Shown: positions 46,984-53,352 of the stretch, piece by piece
Numbering within the stretch: position 1 is the stretch's first letter
Layout: each line of letters starts with the position of its first letter
Origin: Enterobacter phage EC-F2
Sequence record: MN508624.2
Direction: 5' to 3' (one strand)
Length of the DNA stretch: 64,000 bases
Notes under the pieces: model-generated
What the model was told of the DNA's origin: nothing
What the model saw: only the letters and a program-made list of their open reading frames with translations
Databases searched by the model: none
Made by a program: the position numbers and the translations under genes

Positions 46984-49197
46984 ATGGCAGATTTAAAAGC
47001 GGGTACTACCGTTGGCGGTAATACTATCTGGAGTCAGGCGAACTTGCCTTTGCTCCCTTCTGGAAACACAATCACATATAAAGGCTTTAAAATCTACACC
47101 GAAAACGATAAGCCAACAAAGGCAGAAATCGGATTAGGCAACGTAACGAACGATGCACAGGTGAAGAAAGCTGGCGACGATATGACCGGATCGTTGAACA
47201 TTACGGGCGCAAACAGTCAATTAACTGTTCCTTATCGTCTGTTGATGCAACGCGCGGTTGCTGGCGATCCGTATGTGTTATTTGTTCGTCCAGATAACAA
47301 CCCTGTATCAAACGGCTATCCGTCAAGCACTCTTCGAGTAATGACTATCACTGCACGTACCGCAACAACAGCAGATCCGGTTTCTGGTGCTAAACTGGCT
47401 AACGTATTAGCAGATCAGACAGCACAGGGTAACGGATCACTAACATTACAAGCATTTGCAGCCCCAAATACAACCACAGGCGCAAGCGGTGCGCGAACAG
47501 CAGAGATTTACCTAAACGGCAACGGTGAAATATCTTTTATCGGAAGTGGGCTGAACATTGGCATGACAACCAGGGTCAATGGTACTTTGTTTGGTACACA
47601 AATGGCAATCAAAGGAGATTCTAACCGAAATCTGTTCTTCCAGGATGCTGGTGGTAATGAACTCGGTTTGATCTATGCCGATACAGGAAAGAACTTATAT
47701 GTTCGTACTGGTGGCGGTGCATACGCAACCAGATTTGCATCTGATGGAACTTTAGTTCTCGCTAACCATCTAACTGTTCCTGGACAGGCTACATTTAATG
47801 GTCTGGGTGTGTTCAATAACCGTGCTTCTGTAGGCGTAGATTACGATTCACAAGGAACAAACTCAGCAATCCTTCGTATTGATACAAGCGGGGATGGAAA
47901 CGCAGTTGGTGATGGTGTTACTCACTTTGGATATAAAGACAGCAACGGACGATACAACCATTATTTCCGTGGTACTGGTTCGACTTTCATCAACACCAAA
48001 TTAGGTCTTAACGTAAACGTACCATCGTATTATAACGACGTTCCACAGGGCACACCAGCACAATATTTCTTGCCTACTGTTGGTCAGGGCGGGAAAAACT
48101 ATTTGCGTCAGTTCCGAGGCGGTAACGCGGACACAATCTGGCATGAAACTGTTCAGGGCGGTACTTATCGTTTAGCAACAGGTAGCACTGATGCGCAGGA
48201 AGAATTGCAGATCTCTACTGCTGGTTATATTCGAGGTCGTAACGAAATTCAATCGGCATCATGTGGTTCTGGTGGACAGTTCCGCGCGGTACAAGGAAAC
48301 TATGGATTCTTTATCCGAAATGATGGTGGTAACACCTATTTCATGCTTACTGAATCTGGAAACCCTTACGGCGCATGGGGTGATCTTCGCCCGTTGGTGA
48401 TTAGCAACGGCACTGGTACTGTGTCTATGAACAACGGTGTTAACGTTGGTGGTGGTTTGGATGTAAGCGGCGCTACTAAGTTCAGCAATGGTATCGGTTG
48501 TGGTACTCCAAACGGATTGGGCGCAAACGCGATATCACTAGGTGATACTGATACTGGTTTTGTTCAAGAAGGCGATGGTATTCTCAACGCTTATGCAAAC
48601 AGTCAACGAATCCAACGATGGACAACGGGGGCTACAGCAGTCTATAAGCAGTTGCAGGTTCAGGGTATTAACGGGCCAGCATTGCTTCTGAATAACACAG
48701 CAAGCAATCAGTCTGTATATATGCTGTTGCAATATGCAGGTAGTAACGCGGGTTATTTGGGTTTTGGTGGTTCTGATAATACCATGTCAATGCACAACTA
48801 TCAGACGAATACAACGATACAATTACGTACTTCCGATCTGTATATGAACCGTGCATTATATGGTGAAAGTACAGGCAACTTTACCGATGTGTATATTCGT
48901 TCGGATCGCCGTCTGAAATCAAATCTGGTTGAGATCAAAGACGCTCTGTTTAAAGTAGAACAGCTTACGGGCTATGTATACGATAAACAATCAAAAGACG
49001 CTGATGAAATTGTATATCACCGTGAATCGGGGTTGATTGCGCAAGATGTTCAGGAAGTATTGCCTGATGCAGTCAAAGAAGATCATAACTCAGGTATGCT
49101 TACGATTTCTCCTGCTGGCGTTAACGCGCTTCTGGTCAACGCAATTAACGAACTGCGCGAACGTCTGGAAGCAATCGAAAACAAATTAGGGGCTTAA
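46984..49197 (+). CDS. 37: Long tail fibre distal subunit (gp37, T2/S16 type) with a gp36-like N-terminus and a C-terminal intramolecular chaperone (SDRRLK)
   Basis: [26 protein letters not shown] aligns with T4 gp37 [25 protein letters not shown]. The N-terminus [12 protein letters not shown] is gp36-like. The C-terminus [13 protein letters not shown]...[16 protein letters not shown] is an S74-type module. It is followed by a gp38 adhesin, as in T2. Confidence 0.8.
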   Translation: [737 protein letters not shown]

Positions 49198-49222
49198 TGC
49201 CCCTCTTTAAGAGGAATATTTT

Positions 49223-50035
49223 ATGGCTGTTGTAGGCGTACCTGGTTGGATCGGGTCTTCTGCTGTAAGCGAAACGGGTGAAAGATGGATGTCCGCTGCT
49301 GCGGGACAACTTCGATTATCTGCTGCTGGTTATATGTCACGATTTGCGGGGATCTCCCGCGAACAATCAATAACGATTTCCGCAAGCAACGCATACGCAT
49401 GGTCAACCCTGGTCAATCAGATTAAATCATTGGGTGTGTCCGGTGGTGCATTCAAAATTACTGTTGTCGGGAACATCGTTTCAAGCAGTGCTGGTGCTCC
49501 GTGCCTTAACTTCACATCTGATCTTGCGGGTGTTGATTATATTGAACTGATCATTAACTCTGGTGTAGGTGTTATGGGTCGTGGTGGTGCGGGTGGTGGT
49601 GATAACACAGGTGGCGCGTATTCATCCGGCGAAAATGGTGGTGTCGGTATTACTAACGCGATCGGAAACAAACTGCGAATAACGAACAATGGTTATATTG
49701 CGGGTGGTGGTGGTGGTGGTGGCCTGGTAAACATGCCAACTTCTACATCACGACGTGTACAGGTATCCGGTGGTGGTGGTCGACCTTTCGGTGCTGCTGG
49801 TACAGGTGGTTATGACGGTAACGGTACAGCGGCAACAATTTCCGCTCCTGGTTCCGGTGGTTCTTCGAGTCTATCACAAGCTGGTGCGGGTGGTAACTTA
49901 GGTGCGGCTGGTCAATATCCACCTAAAGCCGATGGTCGTCTGGAAGCTCAAGCGGCGGGTGCTGCGGGTGCTGCGGTTAACGGTAACGCGCCAACGTGGA
50001 GAACTGTAGGGACAATTTACGGTTCGAGAGTTTAA
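49223..50035 (+). CDS. 38: Receptor-recognising adhesin gp38 (T2/S16 type) with glycine-rich motifs and variable segments
   Basis: The N-terminus MAVVGVPGWIGSSAVSETGERWMSAAAGQLRL is near-identical to T2-type gp38. There are multiple GRMs (GRGGAGGGDNTGG, GGGGGGG, SGGGGRPFGAAGTGG, GAGGNLGAAGQ). Confidence 0.9.
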   Translation: MAVVGVPGWIGSSAVSETGERWMSAAAGQLRLSAAGYMSRFAGISREQSITISASNAYAWSTLVNQIKSLGVSGGAFKITVVGNIVSSSAGAPCLNFTSDLAGVDYIELIINSGVGVMGRGGAGGGDNTGGAYSSGENGGVGITNAIGNKLRITNNGYIAGGGGGGGLVNMPTSTSRRVQVSGGGGRPFGAAGTGGYDGNGTAATISAPGSGGSSSLSQAGAGGNLGAAGQYPPKADGRLEAQAAGAAGAAVNGNAPTWRTVGTIYGSRV

Positions 50036-50088: not shown

Positions 50089-50733
50089 ATGGCGCTATTA
50101 CAAGATAAATTGGCGGTGCTTGAACGGGTAATATCGTTCATCATGGCGGTCAAAACATGGAAACAGTTATTCATTAAATTGGTTCTTATCGTCACTATTT
50201 TCATTATGTTCGTAACATGGTACAAGTGGGATGACTTATTTTCAGTCTGGAAAACATCTTCAAGCGTTATAGACGTGCCGACGATGGAGATTGAAAAGGC
50301 AAAAAAGTTTGAATCCGCATCCATCGAACAGTTAAACATAGTGCATTTAACTACGGGTGCGGATTTTTCGGCAATCTTTGGGTTCAGACCTAAGAATGTC
50401 AATTATTTTGTTGATATAATTGCGTATGAAGGGAAGTTACCGCAACAGATTAACCCGAAAAATCTGGGTGGCTATCCTATAGACAAGACATCGGAAGAGT
50501 ATAATAGACATATAAACGGGCTGTACTATATCTCAGATATTGCAAGCCCGTATCTTCCAACAAAAGACCTTGTTCCGGTAGCATATACCTTTAGTTGTCC
50601 TTATTTCAATCTAGAAAACTACTATTCTGGATCGATTCTAATGGAATGGTATATACAGAAGCCCGAAGTCACCGATACGAAGTTGATGATCGTGTGCAAT
50701 CAGGCCGCTAGAATTTTAGGCAGGGTTCGATGA
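50089..50733 (+). CDS. t: Holin (gp t)
   Basis: 214 aa, collinear with T4 T holin (EQL.IVH..ADFSA...FRPKN.NYFVDIIAYEGKLP....LGGYP.DKT..EY..H.NG...YSCPYFNL.N.Y.G...M.WY....ICAQAARILGR). It has an N-terminal TM segment. Confidence 0.95.
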   Translation: MALLQDKLAVLERVISFIMAVKTWKQLFIKLVLIVTIFIMFVTWYKWDDLFSVWKTSSSVIDVPTMEIEKAKKFESASIEQLNIVHLTTGADFSAIFGFRPKNVNYFVDIIAYEGKLPQQINPKNLGGYPIDKTSEEYNRHINGLYYISDIASPYLPTKDLVPVAYTFSCPYFNLENYYSGSILMEWYIQKPEVTDTKLMIVCNQAARILGRVR

Positions 50734-50991
50734 TAATTTCAGTTTCAAACCGCTTAAAGCCCGATTGATGAAATCTTTTACTTTCGTCATCTGGTTTTTA
50801 TCGTATATGTCCCATACGCGCATGAGTTCGTAAGGTGTCGGAACATATTCATCGTTCCAGTATCCAACATTACCTATCGTAATGCGCCGGAAACCAGCCT
50901 CTACGCTGTGATATACAAAGAACCCAGCCTTACCCACAGGGGCGACTTTAAAACCGCGTGTAGCGGCTTTCATGGCTTCGTCGTGTGTCAT
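50716..50991 (-). CDS. DUF2829 (Tad2-like) small protein, candidate anti-Thoeris/cyclic-nucleotide sponge
   Basis: 91 aa. MTHDEAMKAATRGFKVAPVGKAGFFVY follows the DUF2829 N-terminal pattern (M.F.EAL.ALK.GKKVAR.GWNGKG.FIY). PTPYELMRVWDIY matches the C-terminal PW..SQ.D.LAEDWEIV pattern. Confidence 0.4.
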   Translation of the reverse strand: MTHDEAMKAATRGFKVAPVGKAGFFVYHSVEAGFRRITIGNVGYWNDEYVPTPYELMRVWDIYDKNQMTKVKDFINRALSGLKLKLSSNPA

Positions 50992-51290
50992 GATAGAATC
51001 ACTTCGCCTCTGTATTGATTGTGATAGATGTATGGACGAACACCCAGTGGGTGATTATCTATGACTAAGATCAGGTCAAGTTCGTCGTGGTTATCATCTT
51101 CTGCAACTATATCCCAGTCGGTCGCTTTCTGTTCTTCAACACTGGCAATGAATACCTTGTTAATCTCAACCTTGCGGTGAGAACGTCGAATGATCGTATC
51201 CCCTTCACGGAACACGATCATATCTGGGTTAATTGGACGGTACGCGGTTTTACCCGCGCACACTTCGTTTAACATTTCTTCGTAAGTCAT
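50988..51290 (-). CDS. Second DUF2829 (Tad2-like) small protein with a ~35-aa C-terminal extension
   Basis: 100 aa. MTYEEMLNEVCAGKTAYRP... and ...IASVEEQKATDWDIV match the DUF2829 N- and C-terminal signatures (LASQTD.LAEDWEIV). ATGA overlap with the downstream paralogue. Confidence 0.45.
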   Translation of the reverse strand: MTYEEMLNEVCAGKTAYRPINPDMIVFREGDTIIRRSHRKVEINKVFIASVEEQKATDWDIVAEDDNHDELDLILVIDNHPLGVRPYIYHNQYRGEVILS

Positions 51291-52089
51291 TCTAATACCT
51301 TTACTCGCTGAACGATTGTTTGTTTAACTTCTTTGTATTCGTTGTGAAGTTTGGGTGTCGCTTTGAAGCGAATCACATCACCCTCTTCAACAATTTTGTT
51401 TCCGTAGTAGATAACCACGTTACCATCTACGTTGATTTTGGTCATGAAACGTTCCACTTCGGTGTAATAAGAAACTTGGGTATATCCGAGAGAAATCACT
51501 TTCTCAACAACACCGCTCATTTCCATACGCTTACCGATTTCCCCGATGTGCTGCGCTGCTGCGATCTTCGCCTGGCGCTCTGCTTCCCATTCTGCGCGGA
51601 TCTCTTCACGTTTAGCGATGTAATCCTTCTCCAGCGCTACGCCCATGCAGTAAGAGCAAATAGCCTGAAATACTGGGCTATCGTTGCCGTTTTCTTTGCA
51701 CTGATCAGCCCACCACAGAATCGTATACATCGGCATATCAGCAATCACTTCACCTTTACGCTTACCGATTGGCATGATGCCCTGTTCCAGCAGTTCCAGG
51801 TTTTCGGTATCCTGTACAGACAGTTTGCCGCGACGTTCAAACAGATCGAAATCTGCGAATCCCTGGAACACCATCTGGAAAGTGTCGGTCTGGTTCAGAC
51901 GATCCACCATGCGATCGAAGTATTCACGCGCTTTCGCTTCTGCTTTATCTGGGTCGGTAGACAGGTTGCAGATATAGTTATCAGAAGTGAATCCACCTCC
52001 ACGACGCTCTACACGCAGGGTGTACATAGCGTTTTTAGCGCCAGAAGAAATGAAGTATGTCGCGGTAACTTTAGTCAGGTTAGTCATGG
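51287..52089 (-). CDS. Hypothetical protein (~267 aa)
   Basis: I chose the internal ATG (MTNLTKV), which has a perfect AAGGAGA RBS. No family recognised. Confidence 0.45.
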
Positions 52090-52130
52090 TGAATCTCCTT
52101 AGTGGTTTCGTTTCGACAAGGCCAATATAG

Positions 52131-52162
52131 CAAAAGCCCTCAACCGAAGTCAAGGGCTTTTT
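52131..52162. terminator. Bidirectional hairpin terminator
   Basis: AGCCCTCAACCGAAGTCAAGGGCT flanked by AAAA and TTTTT. Confidence 0.6.
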
Positions 52163-52163
52163 A

Positions 52164-52391
52164 TCATGCGTTCGAATCTTTCATAACTTTATGAAGATGG
52201 ATATCAAAAATTTTCCAGTATGCTTTTCCGCGAGGATAAATTTTTGCTTTATCAATGTCTTCGTTGCTTCCCCATGTATTGTTTGGGTTACGACAACGAT
52301 TTTTTGTATAATCCATGTGCCAGAATAAGCGCTGCACCGATGAATCTGTGCCTAATGGATCTTCTTTGCTGAACAGAATTTGTGAACTCAT
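52164..52391 (-). CDS. Hypothetical protein (75 aa)
   Basis: ORF. ATGA-type overlap with the upstream gene. Confidence 0.35.
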   Translation of the reverse strand: MSSQILFSKEDPLGTDSSVQRLFWHMDYTKNRCRNPNNTWGSNEDIDKAKIYPRGKAYWKIFDIHLHKVMKDSNA

Positions 52392-52717
52392 AAGAAGAAA
52401 CCTGTTCGAACTACTAAATCGATCTGTTTTTCCGGTATCAGTGGCGCTTTATCGTCAACGTTGCACTGATAATACATCCCGACATACTCATGAGGAACGT
52501 TGGATTCGCTCGCCCATTTCAGGTTGTCATCTGTACGCGGCCCTAACATGAGGTTAACGATATTGACAGCGTGATCCTGTTCTGGGGTATTGTTGCATCC
52601 GTTCACATAATGTCCGTGAGCGGTTTCGAGGATTTCAATGATATCTTCGTCGGCTTCAACGAGATACAGCCCCGTGTTTTCTGGGATTTCCTCAAGAATA
52701 ATCAAAGCGGTTTTCAT
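52388..52717 (-). CDS. Hypothetical acidic protein (~109 aa)
   Basis: I chose the internal start MKTALIIL, which has an AAGGT RBS. The longer ORF-track form (to 52804) is possible. Confidence 0.35.
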   Translation of the reverse strand: MKTALIILEEIPENTGLYLVEADEDIIEILETAHGHYVNGCNNTPEQDHAVNIVNLMLGPRTDDNLKWASESNVPHEYVGMYYQCNVDDKAPLIPEKQIDLVVRTGFFL

Positions 52718-52822
52718 CACACTTACCTTTATGTTTCTGCTTACGTTTTGCTTCTTTAAGTGCTCGCTTGCGATCGCGGTGAGTAGAAGCGCGGTTGAAA
52801 TCATGTTTCGCTACCAGGTTGT

Positions 52823-53053
52823 TCATCGAGGATATAATGGCACATGATGTTGAATACTGACTTCGCCATACAGTTTTACGATAGTTAAGCTATCAGATCC
52901 TTTAACAATTCTGTATTTTTCTGGAACAACGCGGTCGATTTCTTTTTTGACAAAGTTAAGCAATCCGAAGTCATCTATATCTTTTGGTGCTTTGGAAATA
53001 GAAGACAACGATACTCGTTGACGTGAATCATAGTACGAAGAAATTACAAACAT
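52823..53053 (-). CDS. Hypothetical protein (76 aa)
   Basis: ORF only. Confidence 0.3.
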   Translation of the reverse strand: MFVISSYYDSRQRVSLSSISKAPKDIDDFGLLNFVKKEIDRVVPEKYRIVKGSDSLTIVKLYGEVSIQHHVPLYPR

Positions 53054-53097
53054 ATATTATTTTCCTTATTGGGGCTTTTCAGCCCCATTTTAGATAA

Positions 53098-53352
53098 TTA
53101 ATCCAGCAGTTTGCGGATTTTATCCGCGATACGTCCGGCGCGTGTTGCGCTTGCGGTATGATCGCTTTCTTTGGTAGCCAGTTCAGCCAGCTTACGCTGA
53201 TGTTCTTCTTCCGCTGCTTTGCGGTCTGCTGCTACCTGTGCGACCTGTTCGTTATCGTGAGCAATACGCGCTTCGAGTTCGGTCAGGGTTTTGTCAAAAG
53301 TTGCTACGATTTCGTCTACAGAACGGATTTTGGAAAACAGTTTCATATTCAT
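53098..53352 (-). CDS. Hypothetical coiled-coil protein (84 aa)
   Basis: Highly charged helical sequence. Confidence 0.35.
   Translation of the reverse strand: MNMKLFSKIRSVDEIVATFDKTLTELEARIAHDNEQVAQVAADRKAAEEEHQRKLAELATKESDHTASATRAGRIADKIRKLLD

Follow-up and report, generated by a model that had tools for sequence, protein, structure and literature searches.

The window analysed here is the whole 64,000-nucleotide stretch of Enterobacter phage EC-F2 (MN508624.2), and the subject of this study is a pair of small genes, A and B, on its minus strand next to the holin gene t. Their products are probable remote relatives of the Tad2 (DUF2829) family of phage proteins. The initial annotation of this locus had described two adjacent, translationally coupled minus-strand open reading frames (ORFs) of 91 and 100 amino acids, and this description proved exact: the coordinates agreed, and the stop codon of A and the start codon of B share a 4-bp ATGA overlap. 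The two genes and the domains distinguished in their products are as follows.

50988..51290, minus strand: gene A, 100 amino acids; PHROG 7434 (E = 2.3e-54)
51105..51290, minus strand: core domain of A, residues 1-62; delimited by the end-to-end Tad2 alignment and by family-invariant columns
50988..51104, minus strand: tail of A, residues 63-100 and stop codon; hypervariable, ending in the ATGA overlap with B
50716..50991, minus strand: gene B, 91 amino acids; PHROG 7751 (E = 2.5e-53)
50800..50991, minus strand: core domain of B, residues 1-64; aligns over its whole length with the Tad2 core after trimming of the insertion, and is collinear with A
50716..50799, minus strand: C-terminal extension of B, residues 65-91 and stop codon; basic, predicted helical

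Since both ORFs match PHROG families with E-values of about 1e-54 and were found by tblastn in about 176 phage records, A and B are real genes and not chance ORFs. The two PHROG families are of unknown function, and A and B are labelled hypothetical in all annotated records inspected. The host-genus counts were equal for both genes (among others, Klebsiella 116, Enterobacter 19, Cronobacter 14 and Citrobacter 11), all named hosts belong to the Enterobacterales, and the carriers are T4-like phages of the Karamvirus, Pseudotevenvirus and Slopekvirus type. The window itself is about 99% identical to Escherichia phage UPEC03 (Straboviridae; classified in Pseudotevenvirus) and 95-98% identical to many Enterobacter, Cronobacter and Klebsiella T4-like phages. 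The same gene order, A then B then convergent holin t, is shared by Pectobacterium phage POP12 (A 47% and B about 30% identical), Klebsiella phage Miro, Pantoea phage Phynn and the metagenomic contigs L004-L008, so that this synteny persists at a protein identity of 30-45%. A search of 1.84 billion representative proteins with a hidden Markov model (HMM) of the B family returned only nine small relatives and reached no canonical Tad2, and a scan of IMG/VR with the A core gave nothing beyond the same phage groups; the two families thus have a narrow distribution, limited to T4-like phages.

The two proteins also differ consistently in charge. In six of six divergent pairs, A was acidic (isoelectric point 4.8-5.6, net charge -4 to -8) and B was basic (8.6-9.9, +2 to +7); the complete A protein of the window has a net charge of -8. 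Most of this difference is located in the C-terminal extensions. The combination of an acidic A and a basic B with strict co-occurrence and translational coupling hints that A and B may form one complex.

Probable remote homology of A and B to Tad2

To compare A and B with Tad2 at the level of families, we used a reference alignment of 122 sequences, made locally from the Tad2 sequences of the PDB and 120 genuine PF11195 proteins and dominated by the HgmTad2/SptTad2 type with a long insertion. In hhalign, the A core family aligned with this reference end to end over 66 columns (probability 94.5%, P = 8.3e-8, score 44.0), compared with scores of 9.6 for the reversed target and 24.9 for the best of 30 column shuffles. 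The B family was aligned with a probability of 88.6% (P = 2.6e-6, score 38.6; reversed target 23.6, best of 30 column shuffles 17.9). As an empirical null, 359 single ORFs of the window scored at most 23.8 against the same target. When the β2-β3 insertion was trimmed from the Tad2 alignment, B aligned end to end at 89% and A at 79%, with the stretch EYVPTPYELM-RVWDIY of B standing opposite GWLASQTDmLAeDWxIl of Tad2, the pairing that the initial annotation had made. Residues 1-63 of A and 1-64 of B were collinear with each other in hhalign (P = 0.0014, 17%); hhalign with shallow alignments gave no match, and BLASTP detected no similarity between the two proteins.

Other profile searches pointed in the same direction. 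The family HMMs were run against a set in which the 122 Tad2 sequences stood among 596 decoy ORFs of the window; for both families, the 13 best matches other than self were all Tad2. Among 177,635 PDB sequences, the best natural matches of the A profile were SPO1 Tad2 (E = 0.57) and then ModTad2, and the best natural match of the B profile was ModTad2 (E = 0.15). These E-values are individually non-significant; it is the convergence of two independent families on the same few proteins that we regard as significant. Moreover, the conserved core of A gives way to the variable tail exactly at the end of the Tad2 domain. Hadary et al. (2025) collected Tad2 homologues by HHpred against PF11195 at a probability of at least 90%; on our own 122-sequence alignment, which was used here instead of the Pfam HMM, A exceeds this value and B (88.6-89.2%) lies just below it. 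Judging from these comparisons, we consider it highly likely that A is homologous to Tad2, and likely, at a somewhat lower level, that B is.

The initial annotation had assigned both ORFs to Tad2/DUF2829, and this assignment is supported only as a remote relationship, seen with family profiles; the HMM check against PF11195 that it had proposed did not bear it out, as no match reached the gathering threshold of 25 bits. A alone was borderline (15.2 bits, E = 0.033), with residues 1-62 aligned to profile positions 1-73 of 73. PF11195 was nevertheless the top Pfam match of A; 15 of the 19 A relatives likewise matched it below the threshold (best E in the A family 0.011), and for the divergent A relative from L004 it was the sole Pfam match (E = 0.005, 17.8 bits). 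B and its 13 close relatives had no Pfam match at all. In five divergent B relatives, PF11195 was the only Pfam match, in each case below the threshold: P0159 (E = 3e-4, 21.7 bits), P0155 (E = 0.0099), POP12_137 (E = 0.057), P0156 (E = 0.064) and P0154 (E = 0.19). Our own Tad2 HMM gave 3-8 bits with the single sequences of A and B, no better than with other ORFs of the window, from which the two were inseparable in this comparison. Neither NCBIfam nor PADLOC contained a match for A or B, and no Tad2 was found among the PDB sequences with the single sequences or with shallow profiles of close relatives.

Several other matches were discarded. The YhaM/Cbf1 oligonucleotide/oligosaccharide-binding (OB) domain matched an A profile built from close relatives only (A1) with an E-value of 0.0045; this match faded to an E-value of 1.2 with the inclusion of divergent members while Tad2 appeared, and we regard it as spurious. 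A sub-threshold match to RE_MjaI (PF09568) in 4 of the 19 A relatives covered the variable tail and was judged to be noise. In B, the segment RGFKVAPVGKAGFFVYHSVEAGFRR (residues 11-45) has a loose periodic G-F pattern, which accounts for the repeat artefacts obtained with this protein, namely PDB matches to IcmE/DotG repeats and to the designed repeat protein 8G8I as well as three giant repeat proteins (P0161-P0163) in the B-family HMM search.

We also modelled both proteins. The Tad2 fold consists of an N-terminal helix α1, a five-stranded antiparallel β-sheet and a short helix α3 before the last strand. AlphaFold2 runs with shallow family alignments gave poor models, with a mean predicted local distance difference test score (pLDDT) of 53.5 for A and 55.6 for B, and Foldseek found no match for either model in the PDB at E ≤ 0.001. 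In these low-confidence models, a helix at residues 3-11 is followed by three strands and a helix at the closing motif, an order of elements that fits the Tad2 core.

The Tad2 ligand site and the C-terminal extensions

The founding PF11195 member is Tad2 of phage SPO1 (Gp34.65; PDB 8SME, 8SMF, 8SMG, 8WJE), a protein of 89 amino acids. Like A and B, it is a small phage protein in which an N-terminal helix motif (x-F/Y-x-E-A-hydrophobic...G-x-K-V) comes first, then β-strands and finally the closing motif aromatic-x-x-S/T-x-x-acid...W-x-I-V/Y. In SPO1 Tad2, glycocyclic ADP-ribose (gcADPR) is contacted mainly by W25, N26, W73 and D79, with a contribution of S76 and T78 (10.1101/2023.05.01.538930). 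The corresponding loop of HgmTad2 provides the contacts W21/N22/G23; binding is markedly lost in the W21A/N22A variant and lost in S90A/T92A/D93A (PMC10680739). All 122 canonical Tad2 sequences have the β1-β2 loop R-x-G-W-N-G-K-G unchanged, and W69, S72, D75, D80 and W81 (ModTad2 numbering) are likewise invariant. The corresponding positions in A and B are as follows.

W-N of the GWNG loop: deleted in A; deleted in B
β4 tryptophan (SPO1 W73): F47 in A; Y49 in B
Aspartate (SPO1 D79): E53 in A; E55 in B
Serine (SPO1 S76): S50 kept in A; T52 in B
D-W before the last strand: D58-W59 kept in A; only W60 kept in B

The loss of W-N appeared as a two-residue gap in every hhalign alignment; opposite the GWNG loop, A reads Y-R-P-I-N-P-D and B reads A-P-V-G-K-A-G. 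The second missing part is the β2-β3 insertion (residues 36-59 of SPO1 Tad2), which in SPO1 Tad2 carries helix α2, a part of the V-shaped dimer interface; in A and B, a turn of 2-4 residues links β2 to β3. A and B differ from SPO1 Tad2 further in their own C-terminal extensions of 28-38 amino acids, in forming an obligate pair and in staying below the Pfam threshold.

The closing motif is partly preserved. The initial annotation had quoted a known Tad2 motif, which is genuine: the PDB Tad2 chains read WLASQTDMLANDWVIVE, WLASQTDMQAEDWFVLE and WVPSQTDVLAEDWDIV at this site. We tested the form W-x-x-S-x-T-D-x-x-x-x-D-W-x-I-V, in which W73, S76, T78 and D79 are the SPO1 residues. A retains it in part (F47, S50, E52, E53, D58, W59, I61, V62), and in B, Y49, T52, Y54, E55, W60 and I62 remain; one residue of the motif is deleted there, and the W is not preceded by D. 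The strings quoted for the two proteins were also found, ASVEEQKATDWDIV at residues 49-62 of A and PTPYELMRVWDIY at residues 51-63 of B. The C-terminal position given for the strings was wrong: each closes a core of 62-64 amino acids and is followed by an extension of 28-38 amino acids. Similarly, the proposed basic pattern G(K/F)K(V/T)A occurs in B (GFKVA), while A has only GKTA. The most conserved positions are F47, E53, D58 and W59 in A and Y49, E55 and W60 in B.

These two losses leave both known Tad2 ligand sites dismantled in A and B, and one oligomer interface is missing. We read the C-terminal extensions as a likely compensation for the missing parts.

In A, the proposed core elements are α1, β1, β2, β3, β4, α3 and β5, and the core ends with F47-I-A-S50-V-E-E53-Q-K-A-T-D58-W59-D-I-V62; all invariant columns of the family alignment fall between residues 1 and 61. 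The tail, hypervariable in its sequence as in its length, contains indels and evolves much faster than the near-invariant core, yet it keeps a pattern of an acidic, His-rich start followed by alternating (β-like) hydrophobic residues. The initial annotation had described it as an acidic tail of about 35 amino acids; EDDNHDELDL does begin at residue 64, but only about 12 of the 38 residues are acidic. The pLDDT of the tail was below 50 in the AlphaFold2 model.

The core of B starts with MTHDEAMKAATRGFKVAP and ends with Y49-V-P-T52-P-Y-E55-L-M-R-V-W60-D-I-Y63, and in the model its extension contains a predicted helix at residues 69-81. In the GenBank annotation of UPEC03, the closest relative (QUL76921.1, L010 4217-4474), B starts at Met7 and has 85 amino acids, so that the ATGA coupling with A is missed; the longer ORF is correct, because the N-terminus MTHDEA is conserved across the family. 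We rejected a functional role for the strongly conserved end LSSNPA* of B, since its coding sequence is the antisense of that for the C-terminus ILGRVR* of holin T, within an 18-bp convergent overlap (50716-50733). The holin ending RILGRx(K/R)* is kept even in T4, which has no gene overlapping there, and in Miro, where B and the holin abut without overlap, B ends with NLTPALR. The conservation of the B tail end is thus probably imposed by the holin and does not reflect a function of B itself.

Neighbouring genes and the T4 locus

The initial annotation had placed the pair immediately behind holin t, and the Pfam match of this gene confirmed its identity. The surroundings of the pair are as follows.

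50089..50733, plus strand: holin t; PF11031 (E = 1.7e-55); convergent neighbour of B, given as context and lying outside the module
51287..52087, minus strand: upstream gene of about 266 amino acids; PHROG 3628 (E = 1.3e-122, from residue 25 on)
52124..52153, minus strand: sigma-70-like promoter candidate from a consensus scan (TTGACT, 18-nt spacer, TG, TATATT), upstream of the three-gene unit

The 3′ end of holin t and the last 18 bp of B overlap on opposite strands. The ORF upstream of A, as listed (51287..52153, minus strand), has 288 amino acids; the gene likely starts at M23 of this ORF, at about position 52087. A second ATGA overlap connects this ORF to A, and the upstream gene, A and B are probably transcribed as one unit. 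Sigma-70-like sites are no more numerous in the region than expected from shuffled sequences. We infer that A and B are expressed early. The upstream gene precedes the pair in POP12, Miro and Phynn and is absent from L004, so it is not obligatory for the pair. Its product gave a sub-threshold Pfam match only (QSregVF_b, E = 6e-4, residues 116-151) and no match among the PDB sequences; about 100 amino acids at its C-terminus are common to several other PHROGs of unknown function.

Between holin t and ndd/rIIB lies a plastic stretch of unnamed genes, which includes A and B. Its T4 counterpart contains asiA, arn and stp, and no ORF like A or B was found at the T4 locus (asiA, asiA.1, arn, motA), in agreement with the initial annotation, which had stated that T4 lacks such genes there. 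Conversely, phmmer detected no homologue of T4 asiA, motA or arn in the 64-kb window. The interval from t to rIIB is much shorter than that of T4, and small genes of unknown function (e.g., PHROGs 10349 and 4658) fill positions 52164-53352. Tail-fibre genes lie upstream of t (46984-50035), encoding a distal fibre protein of 737 amino acids and a glycine-rich gp38 of 270 amino acids. Homologues of the latter are labelled 'assembly catalyst' in UPEC03 and tail fiber adhesin or receptor recognizing protein in other near-identical records; the glycine-rich gp38 of the window looks like a T2-type adhesin rather than a T4-type chaperone.

Possible roles of the gene pair

What could such proteins do? 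We propose that A and B, a conserved and co-translated pair, belong to the Tad2/DUF2829 fold family as very divergent members with cores of 62-64 amino acids, and that their role is most likely counter-defence: as small oligomeric proteins, they would sequester a nucleotide-derived host immune signal by binding it. We give roughly even chances to the view that the pair represents a minimal, two-gene variant of the Tad2 sponge family acting in this way, possibly as an A-B complex. Lacking the GWNG loop and the β2-β3 insertion, the two proteins would need a ligand and a pocket that differ from those of the SPO1, Hgm and Mo Tad2 proteins. Several results weigh against this proposal: the Pfam score of A is below the threshold and B has no Pfam match, the single sequences do not stand out from other ORFs of the window, the structure models are poor and found no counterpart in the PDB, the W-N pair and the insertion are gone, and all described sponges are homo-oligomers (10.1101/2025.07.12.664507).

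The known members of the family show how far it can vary. Its diversification covers 3′-cyclic ADP-ribose (3′cADPR), histidine-ADP-ribose (His-ADPR), N7-cADPR, cyclic uridine and cytidine monophosphates (cUMP/cCMP) and cyclic dinucleotides (CDNs) (bioRxiv 10.1101/2025.08.24.671296). MoTad2/ModTad2 of Myroides odoratus (PDB 8V3E, 9EIB), a sponge for His-ADPR and cUMP, demonstrates that the fold adapts to other ligands and has room for two pockets (10.1101/2025.08.24.671296). Unlike A and B, it has retained both the GWNG loop and the insertion; the second (cUMP) pocket is situated at the interface of protomers A and C, the one at which HgmTad2 forms its own pocket from the insertion that our proteins do not have. 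HgmTad2 (AcrIIA7) and SptTad2 belong to the same core family and bind gcADPR and cyclic dinucleotides, the CDN pocket being created by an insertion of 35-41 residues (PMC10680739). With no insertion, A and B stand at the opposite extreme of the family.

The initial annotation had suggested that the two copies sequester gcADPR and other cyclic-nucleotide signals, one ligand per copy. As ordinary Tad2 sponges, A and B would form separate homotetramers that sequester gcADPR and between them cover two different ligands in the canonical pockets. Remote Tad2 homology holds for both, the closing motif partly survives, especially in A (S50, the acidic E53 and D58-W59-x-I-V), and Tad2 homologues with differing specificities are documented (10.1101/2025.08.24.671296). 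The residues, however, do not support this idea: the main gcADPR contacts W25/N26 of SPO1 sit in the loop that is invariant in 122 of 122 sequences and deleted here, W73 is replaced by F/Y and D79 by E, and A and B have nothing of the insertion that houses both the CDN/cUMP pocket and the α2 dimer interface. We thus consider two ordinary sponges distinctly improbable.

A different possibility is that the Tad2-derived fold has been repurposed to bind a host or phage protein or a nucleic acid, so that A and B would act as inhibitors of a defence protein or as host-takeover factors with the tails as working surfaces. The loss of both known pockets would fit, and so would extensions that evolve fast while conserving their charge character. 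In addition, B occupies the position of the anti-sigma factor AsiA of T4, an early gene product of 90 amino acids encoded immediately convergent to holin t, and the window has no homologue of asiA, motA or arn. This likeness is positional only. AsiA is all-helical, whereas B is predicted to be an α+β protein, and we rejected B as an AsiA analogue because no sequence similarity was found. No partner protein is known, and the most conserved residues of A and B correspond to those lining the Tad2 ligand site, which suggests a retained pocket rather than a new surface. We regard a repurposed fold as rather unlikely.

The possibility that A and B are unrelated small early proteins of another fold, resembling Tad2 through short motifs by chance, draws on the absence of any match at a curated threshold, on the weak similarity between A and B, on single sequences that cannot be told from other ORFs of the window and on uninformative structure models. 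Such a coincidence would have to explain why two independent families each pick out Tad2 in Pfam, PDB, hhalign and reciprocal HMM searches, with collinear, full-length alignments far above the reversed and shuffled controls, and why the core of A ends exactly where the Tad2 domain does. We consider it very unlikely.

Returning to the paired sponge, A and B may form one hetero-oligomer rather than two separate homotetramers. Tad2 sponges are homotetramers whose ligand pockets lie between protomers, and the conserved charge pattern of A and B suggests that another assembly may be possible. In such an assembly (e.g., A2B2), the place of the α2 interface would be taken by the two tails, acidic in A and basic and helical in B, and mixed interfaces would form a new pocket for an immune signal that Tad2-type proteins are not yet known to sponge. 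We put this forward as a tentative model that is more likely to be wrong than right; if true, it would be the first heteromeric phage sponge. A comparable case is provided by sponge domains that are frequently fused to each other (bioRxiv 10.1101/2025.07.12.664507), as in Acb4-Tad2 of Pasteurella phage Pm86 and in Tad2-Sequestin, fused pairs in which expression is stoichiometric (10.1101/2025.07.12.664507). As in our pair, two sponge-type modules are kept together. The fusions, however, join unrelated families, each modelled as its own homo-oligomer, whereas A and B are separate, translationally coupled and paralogous Tad2-like genes of complementary charge.

The literature searched contained no paper mentioning A or B, and their sequences did not occur in the supplementary tables of Hadary et al., the largest Tad2 survey, in the possibly truncated form searched. 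Because two defining features, the GWNG loop and the β2-β3 insertion, are absent, A and B are not plain members of Tad2; nor are they categorically new. The T4-like phages of Klebsiella, Enterobacter and Cronobacter, which belong to the carrier genera, are common candidates for phage therapy. If A and B are sponges, the Tad2 family would extend to a minimal core of 62 amino acids without either known pocket, implying a new ligand or pocket geometry, and the pair might be the first sponge to combine two different subunits. Should they not be sponges, the Tad2 fold would have been reused for another purpose, and the pair would caution against annotating function from DUF2829 similarity alone.

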